49,531 nucleotides of DNA from an uncultured Gammaproteobacteria bacterium (GTDB taxonomy: Bacteria; Patescibacteriota; Microgenomatia; UBA1406; GWC2-37-13), in assembly GCA_964480835.1 (NCBI GenBank), contig CAYZRL010000001.1:1-49531 (forward strand), read 5' to 3'. How positions within the stretch are numbered: position 1 is the stretch's first letter; each line of letters begins with the position of its first letter. This document shows, piece by piece, positions 2,807 through 18,638 of the stretch. The notes under the pieces are model-generated. The model saw only the letters and a program-made list of their open reading frames with translations, was not told where the DNA came from and did not search any database. The translations under genes were made by a program, and so were the position numbers.

Positions 2807-4417
2807 TTAGATCTCAACGGAAGAGGTCGTGATAGAGAAGACATTCATCGCAGTTGCAGGATCTCCCTTATACACGCTTGAGATGAGCCTTGTTTCCGGT
2901 ACAGCACGCGCTGGAATATCGAAGTCTCGTCCGAGAACATCGTGGGCAGTTGGTTGGTCGTCCTGCACACGAATAATCGCAATGAGCTGAGGGTTTTTCG
3001 GGTCGATCTGACCATCGATAGACCTGTACACATTGAAGTAATAACACTGCCTACCGGTAGAGATAATTGCTTTCTGAGTTTCTTCGTATATCGGAATACC
3101 AACGTAGTTTTTTCCTCGAATTTTGATCGGTACATTTACCCCATCTGGGGAATGATAGTACCGACGCATCCTATCCAAGAACACCTCGTCACCGCTGGTA
3201 AAACGAAACTGGGGCGTGGGACGAAAACCAGCAGTTGTTTCGATCTCGTCCGGTGAAAAAATAGGGATCTGGATCGCGTCTGACTGGAGCTTAATGCGCT
3301 CTTCATCTTCAAAAAAGGTAAGGCTCGGCTTTTCCCGTTGGCGTTCGAGTTGAGCGTAAATTTTTACAAGACTCGTTGCGTCAGCGAGATTCTTCGCCAT
3401 ATCTCCCTGACTCCAGTACATATCATGTTGCGTATCGATGATGAGGTGTGCGGCAATTCTTGATGCAACCGGTAGACCGTAGATACGAGCGAAAACAGCG
3501 AGGATTTGCGCTCGGATCATTTTATCCTCGCGAACACCACCATCCTCAAGATTATTCTCAATATCGTGGCACTTTATGGCGAGAGCTCCAAAAAAATTTC
3601 GGAACGATTGGTCATCAAAATGGAGATTATCTCCCATTCCAAAACTTGACTGAACTATGTAATGCAGATCGGCCAGCGATCGCACAACCTGTTTCTCAAT
3701 CTCCGCGTCTCGGTTGACAAGGTCTGGTCTGATAAGTTGCTCTCTCACCGCACCGAACACTTCTGATTCATAGATTTGGTCAATCATACCTTTTCTGAGC
3801 TCTCCACGCTTAGTGACTGCGGTAATCATAGTTGTAATTGACTGTACCTTCTGGTCACCAAATTTTTCGAAATAACCTCGGAGGAACTCAGTCCACTTCT
3901 CACGACCTTCAACCAGGATTCCCCGTCGTGGATATCGTAGACGAACATCCTCAATGACATCGTGAAGGAGCGCTGCAGCGATCACCTCTGCCTTATACGC
4001 ATGCTGGTGAACGCGCAAATCAATGGCTTCTTGAGTTCTACTGCCATACTCCGCCATTGTAACCATACGAGGCTCACCGATCATCGCCTCGGCGACAGAG
4101 AGCGTGTGCTGAATATAGGGGATCTGCCTTCTTTCACCCTGATAAAGAACTGTCTGTCGTCTTGTGCGACGACTCACATGATCATTATCCTGATACGCAA
4201 CGACCGCTAAGTTCAGCGCGGTTTGGATGAGCGTTTGATCTTCCGTAGAATATCCCGAGACCTCTATTTTACGACGAAACTCTTGAATAGAGTCCCGAGT
4301 GTACTGAAGAAAAGATTCATTGTTAACGATGGTGTTTGATCGTTGCGCAATAAAAGATCGAAGCTTTTCAGCTTTGGTTTGGGGAGGTCGCGTCCTGCGT
4401 TCGGAGTGTTCTACCAC
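2807..4417 (-). CDS. RelA/SpoT-type HD (metal-dependent phosphohydrolase) domain protein with an unknown ~190-aa C-terminal domain and no synthetase domain
   Basis: HTLSVAE, AALLHDVIEDV and IKCHDIENNLED resemble the SpoT hydrolase motifs (H..., HD, DRLHN-like). GTG start. I recognised no RelA_SpoT synthetase motif. Confidence 0.55.
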   Translation of the reverse strand: MVEHSERRTRPPQTKAEKLRSFIAQRSNTIVNNESFLQYTRDSIQEFRRKIEVSGYSTEDQTLIQTALNLAVVAYQDNDHVSRRTRRQTVLYQGERRQIPYIQHTLSVAEAMIGEPRMVTMAEYGSRTQEAIDLRVHQHAYKAEVIAAALLHDVIEDVRLRYPRRGILVEGREKWTEFLRGYFEKFGDQKVQSITTMITAVTKRGELRKGMIDQIYESEVFGAVREQLIRPDLVNRDAEIEKQVVRSLADLHYIVQSSFGMGDNLHFDDQSFRNFFGALAIKCHDIENNLEDGGVREDKMIRAQILAVFARIYGLPVASRIAAHLIIDTQHDMYWSQGDMAKNLADATSLVKIYAQLERQREKPSLTFFEDEERIKLQSDAIQIPIFSPDEIETTAGFRPTPQFRFTSGDEVFLDRMRRYYHSPDGVNVPIKIRGKNYVGIPIYEETQKAIISTGRQCYYFNVYRSIDGQIDPKNPQLIAIIRVQDDQPTAHDVLGRDFDIPARAVPETRLISSVYKGDPATAMNVFSITTSSVEI

Positions 4418-4489: not shown

Positions 4490-6265
4490 TCAGTGCAGAC
4501 CAAACTGCTTGAGGAGCTTCTCGTTTCCTTGGATCTGATAGGTGAGGAGATCCTTATAGACACCTTTCTTCGTAGAAAGCTCCTGAGGGCTCCCTTTTTG
4601 GCTTATTTTTCCATCCTCCACGACGAGTATTGTATCTACGTTCTGAATAGTTGAGAATCGGTGCGCGATGATGATCGTGAGCCGATTTTTCATCAGGTTC
4701 TCGAGTCCAGTTTGCACCTCCATCTCCGACTTCGAGTCGAGACTCGAGGTTGCCTCGTCGAGGATGAGAATAGGGGAGTCTTTGAGAATTGCTCGTGCGA
4801 TCTGTATGCGCTGCTTCTGACCTCCAGAGAGCCGAACTCCTCGTTCGCCAACTTCGGTATCGATTCCTTTCTCAAATCCACTCACAAAGTCCCATGCATT
4901 TGCGAGCTTGAGTGCGCGAATTACATCTTTCTCAGTTGCGGATGAATTTCCATACGCAACATTTTCACGGATCGTTGTTGAGAACAGCTCGTTTTCCTGA
5001 AAGACCAGAGAAATATTATTTCTGATCACCTGATGGCTGAGCTTTTTGTATGAAGTTCCGTTGAGGAGGACGTCTCCCTTTGTAGCGTTATAGAACTTGA
5101 GGATAAGGTTCACAATCGTTGTTTTGCCAGCACCGCTATGACCGACGAGCGCTGCCTTTTCCTTGTTGTGGAGTGAAAAAGAAATATCCTTCAGTACCGG
5201 ATGCGACTTTTCATAGGTAAATGCAACGCCCTTAAACTCGAGATTCGTCTTGGTAAATTTCTTCGAAGAGTAGTTCTCCGTTGTTTCGAACGGCTCGACG
5301 CCCTCGGTGTCCATAATTTCAAAGAACTCCTTTGTTCCAGCCTCTGCTTCCTGAATTCTCGTGAGAATGAAGGACATACCAAACAATGGCCATCGCACCT
5401 GATAAAGGAGCTGGAGCAACAGCGTCATTTCACCAAGTGTGTATGTCTTATCAAATGTTCCTTTAAACACAAGAAAGCTAACGAGTGAGATAACCACCGT
5501 AAGACTCACCTCGCGGATGAAATCAATGCGATGAAACTCAGAGCTCTGTTGTGCATAGTACTCATTGATCTCAGCAAGGCTTTTACGCGTACTGCCAAAT
5601 TCGAGTGGTTCTGTAATAAAGCTTTTTACGAGCTTGATATTACTGATCACCTCACTCATACGAGAGCGCATCTTGTCCTCAATTGGATTCTTCTTTGACT
5701 CATACTTTCCCCATTGTTTCGTCGAGTAATAACTAATCAGAATGTAGATTGGGAAGATTGAGAAAATAATCAGTGCAATTACCCAGCTGTAGTATGCGAG
5801 AAAAATCGTGATCACAAATGCCTGAAGGAGGGTTGGAATAATAAAGTTCGTAGCAGTATTCACAAACGACTGCATCACAAACAGTCCACGAGTAAGTTGA
5901 TTAATGATTTTTCCCGACATTTCACCATCGTAATAGCTCTGCGGGAGCGTCAAAATTTTGTAGTAAAACTGTTCTGTCCAAAACTTTCGAAGCTGACCGG
6001 AGAGGTGATCGCCAACTCGATTACTCAGTGCGGTGACGAGGTTATAGAGTGCTCCCATCACAAAGAACAAACCGGCATAAAGCACGAGCTGAGAATAGTT
6101 TCCGCCTTTTCCTTGAATTTGATTCGCAATGGTGTCAACGATCAGTTTTGAGAACAACGGCATCGCGAGACTGATAAACACACCGGCGACGATCAGGACG
6201 CAGGCAAGAATAAACCACCACGTATACTGCTTAGAGAGCGCAATAATCCGTCCGATATTTTTCAT
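4490..6265 (-). CDS. ABC transporter, fused permease/ATPase (MsbA/multidrug exporter type)
   Basis: Six-TM N-terminal half. Walker A GHSGAGKTT, signature LSGGQKQR, Walker B ILILDEATS and H-loop IIIAHR. Confidence 0.9.
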   Translation of the reverse strand: MKNIGRIIALSKQYTWWFILACVLIVAGVFISLAMPLFSKLIVDTIANQIQGKGGNYSQLVLYAGLFFVMGALYNLVTALSNRVGDHLSGQLRKFWTEQFYYKILTLPQSYYDGEMSGKIINQLTRGLFVMQSFVNTATNFIIPTLLQAFVITIFLAYYSWVIALIIFSIFPIYILISYYSTKQWGKYESKKNPIEDKMRSRMSEVISNIKLVKSFITEPLEFGSTRKSLAEINEYYAQQSSEFHRIDFIREVSLTVVISLVSFLVFKGTFDKTYTLGEMTLLLQLLYQVRWPLFGMSFILTRIQEAEAGTKEFFEIMDTEGVEPFETTENYSSKKFTKTNLEFKGVAFTYEKSHPVLKDISFSLHNKEKAALVGHSGAGKTTIVNLILKFYNATKGDVLLNGTSYKKLSHQVIRNNISLVFQENELFSTTIRENVAYGNSSATEKDVIRALKLANAWDFVSGFEKGIDTEVGERGVRLSGGQKQRIQIARAILKDSPILILDEATSSLDSKSEMEVQTGLENLMKNRLTIIIAHRFSTIQNVDTILVVEDGKISQKGSPQELSTKKGVYKDLLTYQIQGNEKLLKQFGLH

Positions 6266-8949: not shown

Positions 8950-9822
8950 CTATAAGCCTAACAGGAAATCAAGTGTCTTTTGCTTCCGCAGGAGTGCGGC
9001 GTAGAAGTAGGCATTCTGCATAGCTGCAGCTTTTTCCTTTTCGTCTTTTATCGATCCAAATAGCTTCTCGAGCTCTTCATTCTCAACCGAGATACCTTCT
9101 TTTTCAGCAATCTCATTGAGAATGAACTCGAGACTGTGCGTCTCAACGATCTCGCGGAGAAGCTGCTCTCGAAGCTGCTCCATGGTTAAGTTCTTTGACT
9201 GGAGATAGGTTTCGGTCGTCATGCCGAGCTTCTGGATGTCGTCGATGAGCCGTGAAAGCCTCCCATTGAGCTCTTCTTCAAGGATGAAGTCCGAGATCTC
9301 GATTGTCGAGGACTTCAAAAGCGAAGTAAGCATCTCGTTGAGAAGCTCCTGCTGTAGTCTGGATTTCTCTTTATCATCAGGCTGTTTGATGTCTGAACCG
9401 GGAGTCCAGATATCTGCCTTCTTTTTGGCATTCTTCACTTCAGTAAGTTCCTTTTTGTAGTCGCCAAGTGTAACCGTTGGTCGCTCTGCGAGTGTGAAAA
9501 CGAGCTCCCATGGCTCCTGATCCTTTGCCTTTTTCAAATCTACACGAGGTGAAACTACCGGCTTAAGATCTTCCTTTTTGACAATCTCTGCATAGAGATC
9601 GGGGAAGAGCGTTCTAATAATCTGTTGATAGATGGCTTCACGCTTGATATGTTTTTCTCCAAGGGCTTTGGGTGCCTTGCCTTTTCGATATCCTTCTACC
9701 TCAAGGTCGGCGAGTAGGGTCTGGAACGCTTTCTCAGACTCTTTCTCTATCGTTGCCCACGGAATATTGACAGTAATTTCGAACGTTCCTTTCGGGAGTT
9801 TTTTTACGGAATGCGTGTACAT
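8950..9822 (-). CDS. tig: trigger factor, short form apparently lacking the FKBP PPIase domain
   Basis: The N-terminal ribosome-binding domain carries the GYRKGKAP signature (GFRxGxxP). It is about 290 aa against the usual ~430 aa. The ATG at 9822 is preferred over GTG 9831, with TATAAT 10 nt upstream. Confidence 0.8.
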   Translation of the reverse strand: MYTHSVKKLPKGTFEITVNIPWATIEKESEKAFQTLLADLEVEGYRKGKAPKALGEKHIKREAIYQQIIRTLFPDLYAEIVKKEDLKPVVSPRVDLKKAKDQEPWELVFTLAERPTVTLGDYKKELTEVKNAKKKADIWTPGSDIKQPDDKEKSRLQQELLNEMLTSLLKSSTIEISDFILEEELNGRLSRLIDDIQKLGMTTETYLQSKNLTMEQLREQLLREIVETHSLEFILNEIAEKEGISVENEELEKLFGSIKDEKEKAAAMQNAYFYAALLRKQKTLDFLLGL

Positions 9823-9832
9823 AAGGATCACT

Positions 9833-9838
9833 ATTATA
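9833..9838 (-). promoter_or_regulatory. -10 box (TATAAT) 10 nt upstream of the tig ATG 9822
   Basis: The minus strand reads GTTATAAT-AGTGATCCTT-ATG. Confidence 0.4.
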
Positions 9839-10412
9839 ACGAAATATTCTCAGCCTGTAAACTGGCTTCTTCCATGCTCTCAAATTCATGGATGAACCGC
9901 TCGACACGAACTGACCACGTAGGGCTCGCTGCGTATTTGCTACCAATCGCATCAATGGTGTCAGCACCACGATCAATATAGTCGTAGCGAAGACCTTTTC
10001 CGACGGTCTGGATTGCGTCTGCCCATGTAGGGAACATGATATAGCCTCCACCCCATCCAAACGGATTATTCGAGCCAGGGTACGTAAACTGACCAAAGCT
10101 CGACTCCAATCGCGTAATTGACGGCAGGAGGTAACAGTTGAGGTTATAGCTTGTACAGGTAGCCATAAATGAATCCACCGATCCTGCGAGCGGGGAGTGG
10201 TTCGCCTCAAGTACCTTTGTAAGCACTCTTCGTTTGACGATAAGATCCTGTGCGGTATCTCTATGGGATACTATATTTACATTCGTATTTGAAGGCACTG
10301 CAATGAGAGCAGCCGATGATCCCGCCTCCAACTTCTGCGCATGCGCAGAAGGCGTAAAGATCATTAAGACCGTTAGAAAGGACAAAAACAAGTTTAGTGT
10401 TTTCATACCCAT
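9834..10412 (-). CDS. secreted GH73-like peptidoglycan hydrolase, paralog B
   Basis: Signal peptide ending in SAHA-QK. ITRLESSFGQFTYPGSNNPFGWGGGY matches the GH73 ES..G / NN.FG pattern. It is a paralog of 7717..8292. Confidence 0.55.
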   Translation of the reverse strand: MGMKTLNLFLSFLTVLMIFTPSAHAQKLEAGSSAALIAVPSNTNVNIVSHRDTAQDLIVKRRVLTKVLEANHSPLAGSVDSFMATCTSYNLNCYLLPSITRLESSFGQFTYPGSNNPFGWGGGYIMFPTWADAIQTVGKGLRYDYIDRGADTIDAIGSKYAASPTWSVRVERFIHEFESMEEASLQAENISL

Positions 10413-10462
10413 AAAAAAAGATCCTAAAGCTTTTCAGCGCTTGGCGAAAAACCTTAGGATCT
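10413..10462 (-). terminator. intrinsic-terminator-like hairpin (17-bp stem plus U7) forming the whole 5' leader of gene 9834..10412; candidate attenuator
   Basis: The minus strand reads AGATCCTAAGGTTTTTC-GCCAAGCGCT-GAAAAGCTTTAGGATCT followed by TTTTTTT and then ATG at 10412. Confidence 0.55.
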
Positions 10463-10604: not shown

Positions 10605-10678
10605 CGCGAATGACGGGACTCGAACCCGCAACCCCTTCCGTGACAGGGAAGTGCTCTAACCAATTGAGCTACATCCGC
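10605..10678 (-). tRNA. tRNA-Asp (anticodon GTC)
   Basis: Reverse complement is GCGGATG-TA-GCTCAATTGGTTAGAGC-A-CTTCC-CTGTCAC-GGAAG-...-GGTTCGAGTCC-...CATTCGC-G. CCA is not encoded. Confidence 0.9.
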
Positions 10679-10918
10679 AATGTTAAATCGTAGCGAATTT
10701 GAAAGCCGAGAGGCTTTATCAATTGTTCCGATAGCAAAGCCATCGAGAATCCTCGATCTCCGACATTGTCGGTATCGGGAGGATACATCCGCTCGTGCAA
10801 ACTATTTCGCAACTCGTACCGAAATCGACCTACCTATTACTAAAGCAATAAGTACATTTTTTCGCCTGCAAGGTCAATTATACACAATTTCGAATCATTG
10901 TTTCGCGTAATCCCGGTG

Positions 10919-11416
10919 CTAACTTATTATTTTTACCCACGTTGAAAATGGACTAATATATCCTAGCTTACGCAGTAGCCGTTGCATAGGCTCGTTATAT
11001 GTATAAATACGTCCATCGAGTCGCTTTACACCATTATTTTTTGCATACTCTTCAATAGCTCCAATAAGCGCCTGAGCAATACCCATATTTCTGTAGTTTT
11101 TTACTATGTATATATCGTCGATATATAAAGTTTGACGATGAGTAAAAAAATAGCCCAATTTATTAATATACGCGACAATTAATCCTACCGATTTATCATC
11201 CATTTCTGCGATAAGAATTGAGCCACTGTTGTTTTTCAGACTCTTAATGTAAAACTCCTCTGATTCAAACGATACCAATCGTTCTTTGTCGAGCAATTCC
11301 GGCACATTTTTCGCATGCTCTTCCCATGAATCGACCAGTGACTTTCTTATAAACGTGAGATCTTCTAGAACCGCCATCCGTATTGTGAGTTTATGATTTA
11401 TTGATTTCATCTTCAT
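10919..11416 (-). CDS. GNAT-family N-acetyltransferase
   Basis: Acetyl-CoA motif A is VKNYRNMGIAQALIGAIEEYAKNNG (R-x-x-G-x-A). ORF 10919..11542 extends further upstream. The ATG at 11416 gives a typical ~165-aa GNAT and has TATAAT 25 nt upstream, so the start is uncertain. Confidence 0.7.
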   Translation of the reverse strand: MKMKSINHKLTIRMAVLEDLTFIRKSLVDSWEEHAKNVPELLDKERLVSFESEEFYIKSLKNNSGSILIAEMDDKSVGLIVAYINKLGYFFTHRQTLYIDDIYIVKNYRNMGIAQALIGAIEEYAKNNGVKRLDGRIYTYNEPMQRLLRKLGYISPFSTWVKIIS

Positions 11417-11592
11417 CGCAGAAGCACTACTCCTACCTGGCATTATATCAACTAAAACTAGTAATGAAAAAGTTTTTGCGGTGTGGGATCGTCGGAATGA
11501 AATATTAAGTCGAACAATGTTGGACAATATGAATGGTATCATTTCATAGTCACGATCATTTTGCAGTAGGTAAACCGTTTTGATTGTCCTAA

Positions 11593-11928: not shown

Positions 11929-12005
11929 GGACTCGTAGCTCAGTTGGCTAGAGCGTTGCATTGACATTGCAAAGGTCACAGGTTCAAGTCCTGTCGGGTC
12001 CACCA
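11929..12005 (+). tRNA. tRNA-Val (anticodon GAC), CCA encoded
   Basis: GGACTCG-TA-GCTCAGTTGGCTAGAGC-G-TTGCA-TTGACAT-TGCAA-AGGTC-ACAGGTTCAAGTCCTGT-CGGGTCC-A-CCA. Confidence 0.92.
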
Positions 12006-12118
12006 ACTTCCATTCTTTTATTCATCTCGGTCTCGTAAGCGTCGTGTATATTCGTCATGTTGAAGTAATTCCGACGATCCAAAGCGCGTGTTATGTAGCA
12101 TATAAGCGACTGACAAAT

Positions 12119-12144
12119 ATTACACTCTATCGATAGAGTGTAAT
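12119..12144. promoter_or_regulatory. 26-bp perfect palindrome (core TACACTCTATCGATAGAGTGTA) abutting ATG 12145; candidate operator overlapping a leaderless promoter
   Basis: ATTACACTCTATC|GATAGAGTGTAAT. It contains the -10-like TAGAGT 5 nt before the ATG, and CTGACA lies 18 bp upstream. Confidence 0.6.
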
Positions 12145-12582
12145 ATGACACATAATTCACGTAAACCACTTCGAACAAGTACCCGAGAAAAATTATTTCA
12201 CATTTTCTACGAACTCCTCGGAAGTCAGAAGTCAGAATCTCAATTTACAAACTTAATTTCAGAGCTCTTCACTCCCGCAGAGCAGATTATGTTTGCAAAA
12301 CGAATAGCAATCCTATACCTCATACAAAAACGGATCGATCACGCTACGATCCGTAGCGTATTACACGTATCGATGTCGTCGATCTCCCGATATATTCTCT
12401 TACTGGAAAATAGCGAGCACTTAGCGCCGAAACTACAAACTATGGCGAATGTCGATTCTCTCAAACTGTTTTTTGAACAGCTCATATCTGAACTGCTTCC
12501 GCCTGGGGCTCCTATGGTTAACTGGGGTTCGGCGTGGAAAAGAAAAAACAGAATCGCGATTGAAAAGAAGGAAGGTTTGTAA
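12145..12582 (+). CDS. TrpR/YerC-like helix-turn-helix DNA-binding protein
   Basis: ELFTPAEQIMFAKRIAILYLIQKRIDHATIRSVLHVSMSSISRY resembles the YerC/TrpR-like LTPxE..M.A.R......L..G.sy..I....gvS.aTIsR region. Confidence 0.55.
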   Translation: MTHNSRKPLRTSTREKLFHIFYELLGSQKSESQFTNLISELFTPAEQIMFAKRIAILYLIQKRIDHATIRSVLHVSMSSISRYILLLENSEHLAPKLQTMANVDSLKLFFEQLISELLPPGAPMVNWGSAWKRKNRIAIEKKEGL

Positions 12583-12612
12583 TTTCTACACTCTATCGAT
12601 AGAGTGTAGAAA
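12583..12612. promoter_or_regulatory. 30-bp perfect palindrome with the same 22-bp core, abutting ATG 12612; second candidate operator
   Basis: TTTCTACACTCTATC|GATAGAGTGTAGAAA. TAGAGT lies 6 nt before the ATG and TTGTAA lies 17 bp upstream. There is no T-tract after it. Confidence 0.6.
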
Positions 12613-13565
12613 TGCTTGCCGAAGATAACCTACAAGCACCTATAAGGCATAAAGGCTGTACAATAGGTGGTATGAGGTGGATATTTTATTCCGCATTTTT
12701 TATTGCAATGCTTCTCTTCGCTAACTTTTACCAGCTCCCAAACATCTGCGATAAGCCGCTCCCTTATACCGTAGGATTCATTGATAGTCGTTTTCAGCTC
12801 ACGAAAGGGGAAGTGGTGGATAGTATTCAAAAAGCAGAGCATGCATGGGAGCAGGCGGCGGGAATGAACTTGTTTGAGTACACCCCGAACGCAATAACTC
12901 CGATCACCGTTCAGATGGTGTATGACGAACGACAGGCAGTCACCTCACAGGTAACTGCTGAGCGAACTGGTGTCGATCAAGAGAAAACTTCACTACAACA
13001 AAAAATCGCGGACTTTAATGCTCGATCATCGGCGCTCGATGCAAAAGTGTCTGCATTTAATCAAAAAGTGCGGGATTGGAATCGACAACATGACCAAACA
13101 GAGGAGCAGTACAACAAACTCGTCGAGGAGCAAACCGCGCTCCAACAAGAATCGAACGCTCTGAATGCTGAGGCGCAACTGCTACAACTCAACACCAATA
13201 GTGTCAATGGAAGAATCGATCAACTCAACAGCAATATCAATACGCTTCAAACCATTGTCAAATCAAAACCTGAAGAGGGACTGTATGAGTCTGCGACGAA
13301 GACGATATCTATTTACTATCACATCGACAAGAACGAACTTGTGCATACCATTGCACACGAGCTCGGTCATGCGATTGGAATCGATCACCTTTCGAATCCG
13401 GATGCAATCATGTATGTACAGGTGAATAAAACACTCACACCAACCACCGACGATCTCCATGCGCTGAGTGTGGTATGCCGGAAAGAAACACCACTCCAAC
13501 GACTCCAGAACAAAGATTGGCAACAGCGCATGTTGAGGCTCTTTCGTGGTATACTTCCGGTATGA
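12612..13565 (+). CDS. membrane-anchored metzincin (matrixin-like) zinc metalloprotease with a ~110-aa coiled-coil insertion
   Basis: HELGHAIGIDH (HExxHxxGxxH) is followed by the Met-turn AIMY. An N-terminal TM helix is present. A Q/N/E-rich heptad segment (about nt 12924-13257) splits the catalytic fold. An alternative start is ATG 12672. Confidence 0.7.
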   Translation: MLAEDNLQAPIRHKGCTIGGMRWIFYSAFFIAMLLFANFYQLPNICDKPLPYTVGFIDSRFQLTKGEVVDSIQKAEHAWEQAAGMNLFEYTPNAITPITVQMVYDERQAVTSQVTAERTGVDQEKTSLQQKIADFNARSSALDAKVSAFNQKVRDWNRQHDQTEEQYNKLVEEQTALQQESNALNAEAQLLQLNTNSVNGRIDQLNSNINTLQTIVKSKPEEGLYESATKTISIYYHIDKNELVHTIAHELGHAIGIDHLSNPDAIMYVQVNKTLTPTTDDLHALSVVCRKETPLQRLQNKDWQQRMLRLFRGILPV

Positions 13566-14805: not shown

Positions 14806-15996
14806 ATGTCACAACTCAAAGATCATCGTGAAATCGGCCGTGAGATGGATCTCTTCTCGTTTCATGACGTTGCGCCTGGCGCCATGTTCTGGCATCATAA
14901 AGGCTACCTCATCTACAAGACGCTGGTTGAGTATCTGCGATCAAGTCTCAGACAGGCTGGCTATCAAGAAATATCGACTCCGGTTATGGTGAAAAGTAAA
15001 TTATTTCAGCGGTCGGGTCACTGGGATTTTTATAACGAGAACATGTTCAACCTAGATGTTGAGGACGAGTCATACTCGCTGAAACCGATGAACTGCCCCG
15101 GTGCTTGTCTCGTATTCTCAACAAAAACGCGAAGCTATCAAGATCTCCCCTTGCGGTTTTCTGACTTCGGCATTCTGCATCGAAACGAACTCTCAGGAGT
15201 TCTCGGCGGAGCTTTCCGAGTTCGACAGTTCACCATCGACGACGCGCACCATTTTGTGCGCCCAGATCAGATCAAGTCTGAAATTGAGTCGATTCTTCAT
15301 CTGGTAGGGGGTTTTTATCAGAAGCTCGGATTCACCCCGGAGTTCTTCCTCTCGACTAAGCCTGAAAAAGCAATGGGAGATCCAAAACTGTGGGAAGTCG
15401 CGGAGCAAGGATTGAAGGATGCACTCACCGATGCCGGAGTTACATTCGGAGTAAAGGATAAGGATGGAGCATTCTACGGGCCAAAAATTGATATCCAGAT
15501 CAAGGACTCGCAGGGTCGAGACTGGCAACTTGCGACGATCCAGCTTGATTTTCAGATTCCAGAACGGATGGAACTTGAGTATACCGACTCTGATGGCAAA
15601 CCACACCGACCGGTTATCGTTCATCGCGCCGTTCTTGGATCGGTTGAGCGCTTTATTGGTATTCTTACAGAACATACGCAGGGTAATTTTCCGTTCTGGC
15701 TTGCGCCGGTGCAGGTAGCGATTTTGCCGGTTTCTGAGAAGCATAACGACAAGGCGCAGGAAGCGCTCCAACGCCTCGCAGAGGCGCATATTCGCGTAGA
15801 GGTTAACCACGACGACAAGCCATTAGGCGCCAAAATACGCGAAACTACATTGCAAAAAGTGCCGTTTATGGTTATAATGGGGGATAAAGAACTGCAGGAA
15901 TCGGAACTCAGTGTTTCGGTTCGGAGCAGAGAAGGTAAAGATCTGGGTCTCATGAAAGTTACAGATTTTATTAAGACCCACCTAACATCTCTTTGA
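14806..15996 (+). CDS. thrS: threonyl-tRNA synthetase, catalytic core plus anticodon-binding domain only (no TGS or editing domains)
   Basis: It starts at DHREIGREMDLF, which is near residue 243 of E. coli ThrRS. Class II motifs are FRVRQFTIDDAH and GSVERFIGIL. It is 396 aa against the usual ~640 aa. Confidence 0.9.
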   Translation: MSQLKDHREIGREMDLFSFHDVAPGAMFWHHKGYLIYKTLVEYLRSSLRQAGYQEISTPVMVKSKLFQRSGHWDFYNENMFNLDVEDESYSLKPMNCPGACLVFSTKTRSYQDLPLRFSDFGILHRNELSGVLGGAFRVRQFTIDDAHHFVRPDQIKSEIESILHLVGGFYQKLGFTPEFFLSTKPEKAMGDPKLWEVAEQGLKDALTDAGVTFGVKDKDGAFYGPKIDIQIKDSQGRDWQLATIQLDFQIPERMELEYTDSDGKPHRPVIVHRAVLGSVERFIGILTEHTQGNFPFWLAPVQVAILPVSEKHNDKAQEALQRLAEAHIRVEVNHDDKPLGAKIRETTLQKVPFMVIMGDKELQESELSVSVRSREGKDLGLMKVTDFIKTHLTSL

Positions 15997-16526
15997 GAAC
16001 AAATCAGCCGCAACGACCTACTCACAAATTCTATACGATTAATCACCATATTAACGTATCGCCATTGCGAGTAGTTGACCAGGAAAGTAAGCAAGTTGGT
16101 TTAATCTCAAAAGAGGAAGCGATGCGAATCGCGCTTGAGCAGGAGGTTGATCTCGTTCTCATTGCGCCAAACGCAAAGCCACCGGTTGCAAAACTGATAG
16201 ATTTCAAGAAGTTTTTATACCAGGAGCAGAAGAAGCAGAAAGAGGCGAGAAAAGGGATCAAAAAGAGCATTGTAAAGGATATTAAGATTTCTTTGTTTAT
16301 TGCTGAAGGCGACGCTCAGCGCTTTGAGGAAAAAGCAAAGGAATTTTTGAGCGAAGGGAATCAGATTCGAATAAACCTGTCGCTCAAAGGTCGCGAGATG
16401 GGCAAGAAGGACATGGCACTTGCAAAGGTGAAGTCCTTCATCGCAGCGCTCGGTGAAGTGAATGTTTCAAAGGAGCCACGAATCGAAGGACGCGTGGTTC
16501 GCGCAGTTGTTTCACGCAAGAAATAA
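15993..16526 (+). CDS. infC: translation initiation factor IF-3, non-ATG start
   Basis: INVSPLRVVDQESKQVG... is a typical IF-3 N-domain, followed by the linker and C-domain. No in-frame ATG precedes the conserved N-domain. Candidate starts are TTG 15993 (overlapping the thrS stop), ATT 16038 and ATT 16050. Confidence 0.85.
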   Translation: MRTNQPQRPTHKFYTINHHINVSPLRVVDQESKQVGLISKEEAMRIALEQEVDLVLIAPNAKPPVAKLIDFKKFLYQEQKKQKEARKGIKKSIVKDIKISLFIAEGDAQRFEEKAKEFLSEGNQIRINLSLKGREMGKKDMALAKVKSFIAALGEVNVSKEPRIEGRVVRAVVSRKK

Positions 16527-16532
16527 TTATTC

Positions 16533-16609
16533 ATTACGCATTACGTATTACGGATTTAATTCGTAATCCGCAGTTCGTAATAATTAATAGAGCCATCCTG
16601 CACTGCAGG
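16533..16609 (+). promoter_or_regulatory. structured infC-rpmI leader: 3 x ATTACG direct repeats, 2 x CGTAAT inverted copies and a hairpin adjoining the rpmI ribosome-binding region
   Basis: ATTACG at 16533, 16540 and 16547. CGTAAT at 16562 and 16575. CCTGCA-C-TGCAGG at 16597-16609, ending 6 nt before ATG 16616. Confidence 0.4.
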
Positions 16610-16615
16610 GCATTT

Positions 16616-16822
16616 ATGAAAAAACAAACAAAGGTTCGTACAAGAAAAGCAGCGGCAAAGCGATTTAAGGTCACCAAAAGTGGCAAGGTGCTTCATCGCT
16701 CACACTACATTCGCCACAAGCGACATGCAAAAGGAAAAAAACGAACACGACGACTGAAGCTCATGAAGAAAACCGAGGGAGTTTTCGGACGAAAGATTAA
16801 ACAAATGTTAGGGCAAGCATAA
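16616..16822 (+). CDS. rpmI: 50S ribosomal protein L35
   Basis: 68 aa and highly basic. KAAAKRFKVTKSGKVLHR is typical of L35. Confidence 0.92.
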   Translation: MKKQTKVRTRKAAAKRFKVTKSGKVLHRSHYIRHKRHAKGKKRTRRLKLMKKTEGVFGRKIKQMLGQA

Positions 16823-16823
16823 T

Positions 16824-17165
16824 ATGAGAGTAAAATCTGGAACGCGCACCAAGCGACGTCATAAAAAATTACTGAAACAAGCCAAAGGGTATTGGCAAAG
16901 TAGAAGTAAACTATTTAAGAAGGCCTCTGAAGCGGTGCTTCATGCTGGTCAGTATGCATACGATGGACGAAAGATGAAAAAGCGAGACTTCCGATCGCTT
17001 TGGATTGTTCGTATCAACGCTGCGGTACGACCCGCAGGTCTTTCATACAGTGTCTTTATGCAAAAACTGAAGGCGAAGAACATTGGCCTTGACCGAAAAG
17101 TGCTCGCACAGATTGCCGCAGAGCATCCTACGGTTTTTCAGAAGATCGTCGACTCCGTAAAATAA
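16824..17165 (+). CDS. rplT: 50S ribosomal protein L20
   Basis: MRVKSGTRTKRRHKKLLKQAKGYWQSRSK...RKMKKRDFRSLWIVRINAA is canonical L20. Confidence 0.95.
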   Translation: MRVKSGTRTKRRHKKLLKQAKGYWQSRSKLFKKASEAVLHAGQYAYDGRKMKKRDFRSLWIVRINAAVRPAGLSYSVFMQKLKAKNIGLDRKVLAQIAAEHPTVFQKIVDSVK

Positions 17166-17262: not shown

Positions 17263-17544
17263 TCACAAGTTAGGATACATATCCGTCCATGACTTGTTAG
17301 ATGTTTCTATCAGACGAATCTTCCAAGATCTATTCCATTTTTTCAATTGCTTCTCTCTTGCTATAGCATCGCGAATGTCGGGAAAAGTCTCTACGTACAC
17401 AAGAGTGTGGACCTTATATTTTTTTGTGAATCCATCAATTAAATCGTTTTTATGTTCGTATACTCGCCGTTTCAATTCTCTCGTTGTTCCAACGTAGATT
17501 GTTCCGTTTTTCATACTCGCCAAAATATATACGTAGTAACTCAC
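17263..17544 (-). CDS. GIY-YIG (URI) nuclease-domain protein (UPF0213-like)
   Basis: YYVYILASMKNGTIYVGTT...L.RRVYEHK...E..LK carries the GIY...YIG...R...E core. It is 93 aa and on the strand opposite its ribosomal and aaRS neighbours. Confidence 0.8.
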   Translation of the reverse strand: MSYYVYILASMKNGTIYVGTTRELKRRVYEHKNDLIDGFTKKYKVHTLVYVETFPDIRDAIAREKQLKKWNRSWKIRLIETSNKSWTDMYPNL

Positions 17545-17597
17545 GATTTTATGATAACTGGATTCCCAATCAAGTTGGGAATGAGATGGGAGTTTAG

Positions 17598-17603
17598 TAT
17601 AAT
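17598..17603 (+). promoter_or_regulatory. -10 box (TATAAT) 6 nt upstream of the pheS ATG 17610
   Basis: Sequence reads TAGTATAAT-TCTTCC-ATG. Confidence 0.45.
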
Positions 17604-17609
17604 TCTTCC

Positions 17610-18638
17610 ATGGATATTACATCGGTACAGGCTTCGTTTGATGAGGCTGTGGTAGCTTGTGACTCACTAAAACAACTTGAGGAACTCGAAGTATCGTATC
17701 TAGGAAGAAACGGAAAAGCAAACGCACTTCTGCAGAGTATAAAAACGGTTCCCAATGAACAAAAGAAGTCATTTGGCTCTAACGTCAACGCCCTCAAGCA
17801 ACATATTATTGCCGGTATCGAACAGCAACGAACAAGTCTTTTTCAAAAAGAAGACGCTCGATCGGCGATCGACGTTACACTGCCGGGTACGCCGTATCCT
17901 GCAGGAAGTATCCAGATTACTACCTATGCAATGGAGGAAATTGAAAAAATATTTTCAAAAATTGGTTTCATACGTATGTCTTATCCTGAAGTTGACTGGG
18001 AGGAATTTGCGTTTGAAACACTCAACATGCCTACAAATCATCCTGCGCGAGATGATTTTGAGTCTTTTTTTATCGATTTTCCACCACATCCTAAATTTGG
18101 GAAAATGCTCCTCACTCCACATACCTCAAACGGACAGAATAGAGAAATGAGAAGATTGAAGAGTAGGCCACCTCTTCGCATGATTAATCTTACGAAAACG
18201 TACCGGCCAAACTGGGATGCTTCACACACCCCAATGTTCCATCAATTTGAGGGAATGTGTATCGATAGAGATATTAACATTACTCATCTGAAAGGTACAC
18301 TGGATTATTTTGTAAAAGAATTTTTTGGTCCCAAACGTGAAGCACGTATCCGACCGTATGACTTTCGATTCACCGAACCATCTTTTGAAACAGACGTGTC
18401 GTGTGGAATCTGTCTCGGTAAAGGCTGCAAAATGTGTAAAGATGGTTGGCTTGAGCTTGGTGGTGCAGGCATGATCCATCCTAATGTTCTTAAAGCCGGC
18501 GGCGTTGATTCCGATGAGTATTCTGGTTTTGCTTTCGGGTGGGGTGTCGAAAGAGTTATATCTATGAAGGAGGGTTCTCAAATCGATGATTTACGAATTG
18601 TTTATGGGGGTGACATTCGATTTTTGGAACAGTTTTAA
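17610..18638 (+). CDS. pheS: phenylalanyl-tRNA synthetase alpha subunit
   Basis: N-terminal coiled-coil arm. HPARDDFESFFI, FRFTEPSFE and AFGWGVERV are class II motifs. Length 342 aa. Confidence 0.93.
   Translation: MDITSVQASFDEAVVACDSLKQLEELEVSYLGRNGKANALLQSIKTVPNEQKKSFGSNVNALKQHIIAGIEQQRTSLFQKEDARSAIDVTLPGTPYPAGSIQITTYAMEEIEKIFSKIGFIRMSYPEVDWEEFAFETLNMPTNHPARDDFESFFIDFPPHPKFGKMLLTPHTSNGQNREMRRLKSRPPLRMINLTKTYRPNWDASHTPMFHQFEGMCIDRDINITHLKGTLDYFVKEFFGPKREARIRPYDFRFTEPSFETDVSCGICLGKGCKMCKDGWLELGGAGMIHPNVLKAGGVDSDEYSGFAFGWGVERVISMKEGSQIDDLRIVYGGDIRFLEQF

Follow-up and report, generated by a model that had tools for sequence, protein, structure and literature searches.

Two copies of one palindrome bracket the gene of a predicted Trp-repressor-fold protein in bacteria of the candidate phyla radiation

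Proteins of the Trp repressor (TrpR) family, including HisR/YerC, the histidine repressor of Firmicutes, bind lineage-specific palindromes of ~20 bp (PMC9413887). Here we analyse a 49,531-bp stretch of DNA (contig CAYZRL010000001.1; hereafter the window) from a bacterium of the candidate phyla radiation (CPR, or Patescibacteria), in which the gene of a 145-aa protein with a predicted Trp-repressor fold lies between two copies of one palindrome. HisR is likewise a TrpR-family protein with lineage-specific palindromes, and some sources label members of the family described here 'YerC'; HisR has ~100 aa and its sites lie upstream of his targets, whereas the window protein has 145 aa and sites that bracket the regulator gene. 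We rejected an identity with HisR/YerC because of the length and extension of the protein, the position of the sites around the regulator itself and the lack of a his operon in the loci examined. With E. coli TrpR and the autoregulated trpR operator, the window protein and its sites share the predicted fold and a site of dyad symmetry over the regulator's own putative promoter; the residues that a tentative alignment places opposite the TrpR pocket are also conserved in the family. They differ from TrpR in a C-terminal extension of ~40 aa with a PG..G.NW..W motif, in failing the TrpR equivalog model, in palindromes that are perfect over 30–32 bp, in a second identical site after the stop codon, in a putatively leaderless promoter and in their CPR hosts, where a genome can carry several family paralogs with apparently different specificities. 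CPR bacteria largely lack amino-acid biosynthesis and, to our knowledge, their gene regulation is almost unexplored.

The lac O1–O2 and gal OE–OI pairs are similar in that one protein is served by two operator copies, a promoter site and a further site several hundred bp downstream of it. In the lac and gal systems, tetramer-mediated looping has been demonstrated and the second operator falls within a structural gene, whereas in the present family site 2 immediately follows the stop codon of the regulator itself and the distance between the sites does not preserve helical phase. A small gene between matching palindromic sites, together with presence/absence and duplication, is also found in pdif/Xer modules, integron cassettes, floxed-type units, and in hairpin-ended elements of the REP/RAYT type (repetitive extragenic palindromes with their associated tyrosine transposases) or the IS200/IS605 type. 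In these systems a common recombinase imposes a single consensus on the sites; each unit of the present family, in contrast, has its own palindrome and contains no recombinase. Our literature search found no description of this family or of its bracket layout.

A palindrome pair shared by a protein family

The 22-mer TACACTCTATCGATAGAGTGTA occurs at two sites in the window, 12121–12142 and 12587–12608, as an initial annotation of this DNA had reported. When up to 3 mismatches were allowed, no third copy was found in the 49.5 kb, and a search with the 16-mer core, again allowing 3 mismatches, returned the same two sites only. None of 100 shuffles yielded any match, which bears out the initial view that an exact duplication is unlikely to be due to chance. 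The extension of the two copies into longer palindromes, given initially as 26 or 30 bp, needed correction to 30 and 32 bp. Palindrome 1 is perfect over 30 bp (12117–12146, ATATTACACTCTATCGATAGAGTGTAATAT) and its right end is the AT of the ATG at 12145. Palindrome 2 is perfect over 32 bp (12582–12613, ATTTCTACACTCTATCGATAGAGTGTAGAAAT); its left end is the final A of the TAA stop codon (12580–12582) and its right end is the AT of the ATG at 12612. The direct repeat that they share is exactly 22 bp long and extends on neither side. The exact duplication and the perfect dyad symmetry of this pair are a real, non-chance feature. Three other perfect palindromes of at least 14 bp are present in the window, the longest of which reaches 20 bp (CTTCTGCGCATGCGCAGAAG, 10332–10351, within the open reading frame (ORF) at 9834–10412).

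We compared 11 independent units, namely that of the window and those of ten mutually divergent homologs (26–59% protein identity) from Roizmanbacteria and other CPR/Patescibacteria, whose loci are designated here by L numbers. In 11/11 units the same palindrome stands on either side of the gene. The upstream palindrome ends between −3 and +28 nt relative to the start codon, mostly overlapping it, and the downstream palindrome starts 0–33 nt past the stop codon, except that the L032 copy overlaps the stop. Upstream-versus-downstream match scores range from 12.5 to 27.5, and each unit scored higher than the best of 200 shuffles of its own downstream flank (best shuffle, 9.5–15.5). Only one of 102 control non-family genes from the same loci reached a score of 12.5, and its flanks are an unrelated 80-bp repeat. 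We conclude that the bracket is a family trait and is not peculiar to the window locus; the layout holds across the family units examined, and its evolutionary behaviour is unusual.

The sequence of the palindrome is wholly different from unit to unit, even for two L028 paralogs that lie 4 kb apart (L028a, TTAACTAGTTAACTG; L028b, AATG(T/A)TTTAAAACATTGTAAT). The other palindromes are ATGCTTTAATTATTTAAATAATT(G/A)AAGCAT in L007, ACC(C/T)CGAATATTCGA in L016, CACACTACTATCTTTCGAAAGATAGTAGTGTG in L026, TCACTACAATTTATTAATAAATTGTAGTGA in L027, CAATCGATTAATCGATTG in L030 and TAGTTAATTAATTAACT(G/A)TACAT in L032, while the shared motifs of L011 and L014 read ATACTACT...TAATATTA...AGTAGTAT and GAATA..CAGTTAAC...TTAACTGTATATT. 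Since the paired sites stay alike and symmetric while their sequence changes between units, recognition of both sites by the enclosed protein would be the simplest cause. The distance from site to site is 465–479 bp, or 530 bp in one unit, and follows the length of the gene. Units with ACTAC-type half-sites (L011, L026 and L027) have the most similar helix-turn-helix (HTH) regions, 63–67% identical. Covariation of the recognition helix with the half-sites was considered as a test and rejected, because shared ancestry of protein and sites would yield the same signal.

The enclosed gene (12145–12582, + strand) is a member of a CPR-specific family. Its 145-aa product passes the Pfam Trp_repressor model (PF01371) marginally, scoring 28.3 bits where 27 are required (E 1.8e-6), and when a family profile was searched against the PDB it matched the TrpR-like structures 3frw (E 1.9e-4) and 3kor (E 8.1e-4). 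An AlphaFold2 model of the protein has eight helices and a mean predicted local distance difference test score (pLDDT) of 85.9. When this model was compared with the PDB using Foldseek, the top 41 matches were all E. coli TrpR or TrpR-like structures (3kor, 3frw and 3g1c), with probabilities of 0.99–1.00 and target-normalised template modelling (TM) scores of 0.67–0.79, at least 0.70 except for one chain. As modelled, the protein has the all-helical TrpR fold with its HTH. Orthology to TrpR itself was rejected, the NCBIfam equivalog TIGR01321 giving 19.1 bits against a cut-off of 67.25. Residues 104–145 form two extra predicted helices that contain the conserved PG..G.NW..W motif and are missing from both TrpR and YerC.

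In an hhalign alignment with the E. coli TrpR sequence (probability 51%), Thr44, Arg54, Thr81 and Arg84, the tryptophan-pocket residues of TrpR, stand opposite T/S43, the invariant R53, T79 and K/R82 of the family; position 79 is S in the window protein. Because these pocket-aligned residues are conserved in the family, use of a small-molecule co-repressor is possible. A word-indexed protein search matched the query alone and an exact look-up of the query in the contig index gave no match; the family was recovered by an exhaustive HMMER search, which returned at least 417 cluster representatives (E ≤ 1e-3) whose lengths are, with few exceptions, 143–150 aa. The named hosts are Candidatus Roizmanbacteria, Levybacteria and 'Patescibacteria group', and the records carry the annotations hypothetical, 'Trp family transcriptional regulator' or 'YerC'. 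The PheS protein encoded in the window has its best named matches in Roizmanbacteria and Woesebacteria (~60% identity), which assigns the window to a Microgenomates-type CPR bacterium. A family of this size that comes with its probable DNA sites attached would offer natural protein/site pairs for testing how the TrpR-fold HTH reads DNA.

Promoter geometry and a proposed autoregulatory unit

At site 1 the −35-like hexamer CTGACA (12110–12115) is followed by 18 nt, the −10-like hexamer TAGAGT (12134–12139), 5 nt and the ATG. This arrangement had been reported initially, along with its counterpart at site 2, and both hexamer pairs are present with the spacings described. CTGACA forms the 3' end of a conserved upstream motif, TTATGTAGCATATAAGCGACTGACA (12092–12115, + strand). 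In the form TTTTGTAG-N2-TATA(A/G)(G/T)C..-T(T/A)GACA, the motif lies upstream of 10/11 units and is rare elsewhere in the loci examined. A 20-mer within it, TGTAGCATATAAGCGACTGA, occurs once in the window (12094–12113) and is identical in L007 (2445–2464 on the + strand and 2150–2169 on the − strand), although the two regulators are only 46% identical. The shared motif may define a distinct kind of promoter or be bound by another factor. A wider version, TTTTGTAG-N2-TATAAGCG-N-TAGACA, also precedes a RAYT-like gene in L028 (at 17486) and an LTD-domain gene in L007, and almost no further genes in the loci examined are preceded by it.

A sigma-70-like promoter scoring at least 9/12 is present in 7/11 units, compared to 2.4% of random positions. 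The geometry of these seven is the same: a −35 element at the GACA end of the motif, immediately left of the palindrome, a spacer of 17–19 nt that is filled by the left palindrome half, a −10 element in the right half, and 5–8 nt to the start codon. Across the window, 16 of 39 genes start with a −10-like hexamer ending 4–9 nt upstream and no Shine–Dalgarno sequence, whereas random positions gave 4.1 ± 1.8; TATAAT-like examples precede the starts at 4417, 6265, 7122, 8936, 14806, 17610, 35505 and 48349. The Shine–Dalgarno sequence is missing from most window genes. Given this excess over random positions, leaderless mRNAs would be the norm in this genome, which points to a largely leaderless transcriptome in the CPR bacterium of the window and, by extension, to leaderless promoters as the norm in its lineage. 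Site 1 is well supported, from its sequence context, as a leaderless promoter whose core is covered by the candidate operator of the adjacent HTH protein. The initial annotation had gone further and read both sites as leaderless promoters under one dimeric repressor. For site 1 this view stands, given the conserved −35 element, the −10 element inside the palindrome and a palindrome particular to each homolog. As a general reading of site 2 it does not, since the 3' palindrome is there in 11/11 units and the neighbouring gene is convergent in 5.

We propose that the palindromes are the cognate binding sites of the enclosed Trp-repressor-fold protein and that gene and sites form a self-contained autoregulatory unit with a leaderless promoter, a reading to which we assign a probability of roughly 0.6. 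The unit would span ~525 bp and consist of promoter, operator 1, leaderless ATG, gene, stop codon and operator 2. RNA polymerase would use CTGACA as its −35 and TAGAGT, inside palindrome 1, as its −10 element, and transcription would begin at or beside the A of the ATG at 12145. A protein dimer on palindrome 1, the proposed operator O1 (12117–12146), would sit over the promoter spacer and the −10-like hexamer as well as the predicted transcription start and the AT of the ATG, and would thereby shut off its own gene. The same protein would also be expected to bind the identical site after the stop codon, the proposed operator O2 (12582–12613). What the second site does is the least certain part of the proposal. 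We favour either an auxiliary operator that would hold a second dimer for looping or a roadblock that would seal the unit from neighbouring transcription. Once transcribed, palindrome 2 would form a hairpin of 13–14 bp that would mark the 3' end of the mRNA, and in the window locus site 2 could additionally gate a leaderless transcript of the downstream metzincin gene from 12612. The proposal raises a testable question: why does an identical operator lie right after the regulator's own stop codon?

Several points weigh against this proposal. Perfect symmetry over 30–36 bp exceeds what is usual for the operator of a single dimer. No further site was found in the 49.5-kb window or in most of the 20-kb contexts, so that most family proteins appear to regulate only themselves, which would be odd for a housekeeping regulator. 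The spacing between sites differs among units by over a helical turn, so phased looping finds no support in it. As to the protein, the Pfam Trp_repressor score is marginal and the NCBIfam TrpR equivalog model was clearly failed. Co-inheritance of protein and sites from a shared ancestor could explain part of the pattern, and the likeness of the two sites of a unit could be maintained by gene conversion.

Presence, absence and stray copies

Close relatives lack the unit. The left edge of the variable segment is a tRNA-Val(GAC) gene (11929–12005, + strand), detected with ARAGORN and Rfam (Rfam reported only three tRNAs in the window), and homology to L003 ends at 12013. In blastn and global alignments, the 703 bp from 12014 to 12716 are replaced in L003 and L002, whose flanks are 91.6–92.0% identical, by 106 bp of unrelated or diverged sequence containing neither regulator nor palindrome, and the metzincin gene starts ~70 bp after tRNA-Val. 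Similarly, the L027 unit lies between the GlmS and SecA genes, which are only 2–24 bp apart in the syntenic loci L030 and L031. By tRNA-Asp, the window also differs from L003 in a second place, a GNAT acetyltransferase gene (10919–11542, within 10679–11552) standing opposite a SET-domain gene (L003, 5698–6130); this tRNA-rich stretch is a hot spot of variation.

In L028, from Roizmanbacteria, three family genes lie within 12 kb (5775–6218, 10001–10438 and 16429–16866); two are identical and the third is divergent with a different palindrome. The two units with identical proteins are 6.4 kb apart; they share a 100% identical stretch of 531 bp that opens with the promoter motif and closes with the last base of palindrome 2, and their sequences diverge at once beyond it. 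A RAYT-like Y1-transposase gene beside the family genes (17516–18049; 177 aa) has the promoter motif as well; its NCBIfam match (E 2.6e-15) falls below the cut-off. Contigs that reciprocally join the flanks of the identical units were also found, and these are indistinguishable from misassembly across the 531-bp repeat. Because close relatives lack the unit and the exact L028 copies end at palindrome 2, a cassette-like history is plausible, and the cassette-like origin that had initially been left open thus gains support from both the absence in relatives and the 531-bp duplicate. Judging from these comparisons, the unit was probably gained, lost and copied as a block, and regulatory modules may turn over as cassettes in tiny genomes. 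A defined mechanism of mobility is a minority hypothesis, since each unit has its own palindrome and the comparisons revealed neither a target duplication nor a clean empty site, nor a recombinase (the window not having been searched for recombinase genes).

Copies of the palindromes outside the brackets are few. None was found beyond the bracket in the window or in the ~20 kb each of L028, L030 and L032. L027 has a third copy (10648–10677, 26/26 core match) 8.6 kb away, starting 3 nt past the AlaRS stop codon and just 5' of a TATAAT and the start of a gene for a protein with a tRNA-binding domain. Given this copy, at least some family members probably have additional targets, and the tRNA_bind-domain gene of L027 is a candidate regulon member. 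The 18-mer core of the window palindromes gave a single, unrelated Flavobacterium match in 185,579 reference genomes (596 Gb), a set that does not include the genome of the window. In JGI metagenomes it was found at nine loci, of which L017 (Ga0210405_10218219) alone looks related; the eight others were set aside as apparently chance or unrelated palindromes, two of them long and GC-rich. In L017 the 18-bp core lies within a 30-bp perfect palindrome, AAATTTCACTCTATCGATAGAGTGAAATTT, present twice, 470 bp apart (1007–1041 and 1477–1511). The pair brackets an 84-aa ORF on the opposite strand that has no Pfam match and is not a family gene, and the stretch opens with ATGGCCAGAAT (MARI...), which resembles family member P0013. 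L017 may be a decayed or exchanged unit.

Alternative explanations and genomic neighbourhood

Downstream of palindrome 2 lies an M10/metzincin-like gene with a coiled-coil insert (12612–13565, + strand; Pfam Peptidase_M10, 30.1 bits), which could start at 12612 (317 aa) or at 12672 (297 aa). The insert, predicted at ~100 residues, falls between the N-terminal part and HExxH, with many coiled-coil family matches at residues 105–215. The initial annotation had proposed that the repressor controls this gene in addition to its own. Site 2 might serve chiefly as another leaderless promoter with its operator, which would place the metzincin gene under the same repressor from 12612; this is possible, but we consider it doubtful. 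It is consistent with the hexamers at site 2, where TTGTAA (12577–12582), 17 nt, TAGAGT (12600–12605) and 6 nt lead to an ATG in frame with the metzincin ORF, with leaderless starts as the apparent rule in the window genome, and with the NCBI record, in which the 317-aa form is called. The relatives, however, argue for the later start: metzincin cluster mates at ≥90% identity have 297 aa, equivalent to a start at the Met encoded at 12672, and L003 has an in-frame TGA two codons 5' of its metzincin ATG. The Met at 12672 also has a better −10-like hexamer of its own, TACAAT, 7 nt upstream, so that −10-like hexamers precede both candidate starts. An ATG at the end of palindrome 2 occurs in the window only, and in no other family unit does a long ORF start there. 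The gene after the unit is convergent in 5/11 cases (L027, L028a, L028b, L030 and L032), and co-directional next genes outside the window start 100–320 nt away. On these comparisons palindrome 2 belongs with the regulator unit and not with the next gene. Because relatives start at 12672 and neighbours are convergent or distant, metzincin control from 12612 would not be a conserved role of site 2. Of what had been proposed, autoregulation fits site 1; metzincin control does not extend across the family and is possible in the window locus alone.

The presence/absence and duplication data could also be read as a mobile or exchangeable cassette, in which the palindromes would be end or recombination sites (of the lox/dif type or hairpin ends), the HTH protein would bind ends or act as an accessory factor, and the enzyme would act in trans. 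Such a cassette would be compatible with operator function. The absence of the whole unit beside tRNA-Val in relatives with 92% identical flanks, its occurrence in only one of the syntenic GlmS–SecA pairs, the L028 copies ending exactly at palindrome 2, the clustering of three family genes by a RAYT-like gene with the same upstream motif, the L017 pair enclosing a different ORF and the solo copy in L027 all favour it. We nevertheless consider this unlikely. No recombinase or transposase was noted in or beside the window unit, where no search was aimed at recombinase genes, and neither a target-site duplication nor a clean empty site was found, the boundaries against L003 being diverged rather than sharp. 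The left edge of the identical L028 block lies at the promoter motif instead of palindrome 1, the identical protein P0166 is found in only two contexts plus the reciprocal joins, which may be misassemblies, and unit-specific palindromes within one genome argue against a shared host recombinase. An integron cassette or Xer/dif-type module was rejected because the palindromes differ wholly between units, including paralogs on one contig (the window not having been searched for recombinase genes), and an insertion sequence or miniature inverted-repeat transposable element (MITE) because the unit has no transposase and the L003 boundaries leave no clean empty site. Of comparably low probability is a broader speculation, that the units are an unrecognised class of minimal, self-bracketing cassettes of a repressor and two sites that would diversify in specificity, spread, duplicate and be lost within CPR genomes as selfish or insulator-like elements and not as ordinary regulators with a regulon; the protein would act mainly on its own flanks, so as to loop out or insulate its gene or to mark the gene for recombination.

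An explanation in terms of RNA structure is less likely still. A 5' hairpin would hide the start codon, a 3' hairpin would act as terminator or stabiliser, and the identity of the two would be due to gene conversion instead of protein binding. Both palindromes do fold strongly as RNA (palindrome 1, −15.2 kcal/mol, z −4.8; palindrome 2, −23.3 kcal/mol, z −6.0), and a T-rich run like that of intrinsic terminators comes after the 3' palindrome of L027, L030 and L028a. Yet the conserved −35/−10 geometry would put most of palindrome 1 upstream of the transcript, palindrome 2 of the window has a hairpin with no U-tract or T-run after it and was not called in a terminator scan, mismatches in imperfect copies are not preferentially G–U compatible, and a hairpin alone needs no match between the 5' and 3' sequences. 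Scarcely credible, finally, is a dispersed REP-like palindrome mobilised by a RAYT, with two copies here by chance. The RAYT-like gene beside one L028 family unit and a separate ~80-bp intergenic palindromic repeat in L028 would be in keeping with it. The dozens of copies that would, according to the initial annotation, mark a REP-like element are not seen: the 49.5 kb hold only two, both bracketing the regulator, the core is missing from the reference genomes save for the one unrelated match, only one related locus was found in the JGI metagenomes, and the palindromes are specific to each unit. A REP/RAYT element was also rejected on the grounds that the enclosed gene has the predicted TrpR fold and not that of a Y1 transposase. 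Altogether, we favour the autoregulatory unit, with the enclosed protein binding both palindromes.

The ~80-bp repeat of L028 (11886–11968, 12977–13060 and 13603–13684) is imperfectly palindromic, with copies 85–96% identical and in both orientations that sit between housekeeping genes. Unrelated to the regulator palindromes, it resembles a REP doublet forming a hairpin (REPIN) or a MITE.

Genes for tRNAs or aminoacyl-tRNA synthetases are often found only a few genes away from family units: tRNA-Val and ThrRS in the window (11929–12005 and 14806–15996), tRNA-Ser in L007 (2293–2379), HisRS in L011 (4194–5513), AlaRS in L027 (8846–10645), and CysRS and ProRS in L028 (4213–5616 and 14521–16233). 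This proximity may hint at a link to amino-acid or tRNA status, or may just reflect which genes small genomes contain. Two different organisms have short tandem repeats of the form TATAAAGTT(C/T)ATAAAGTT upstream of family units, and L028 has them in other places too (L028, ~9800–9830, 3899–3925 and 16237–16267; L032, ~9925–9970).

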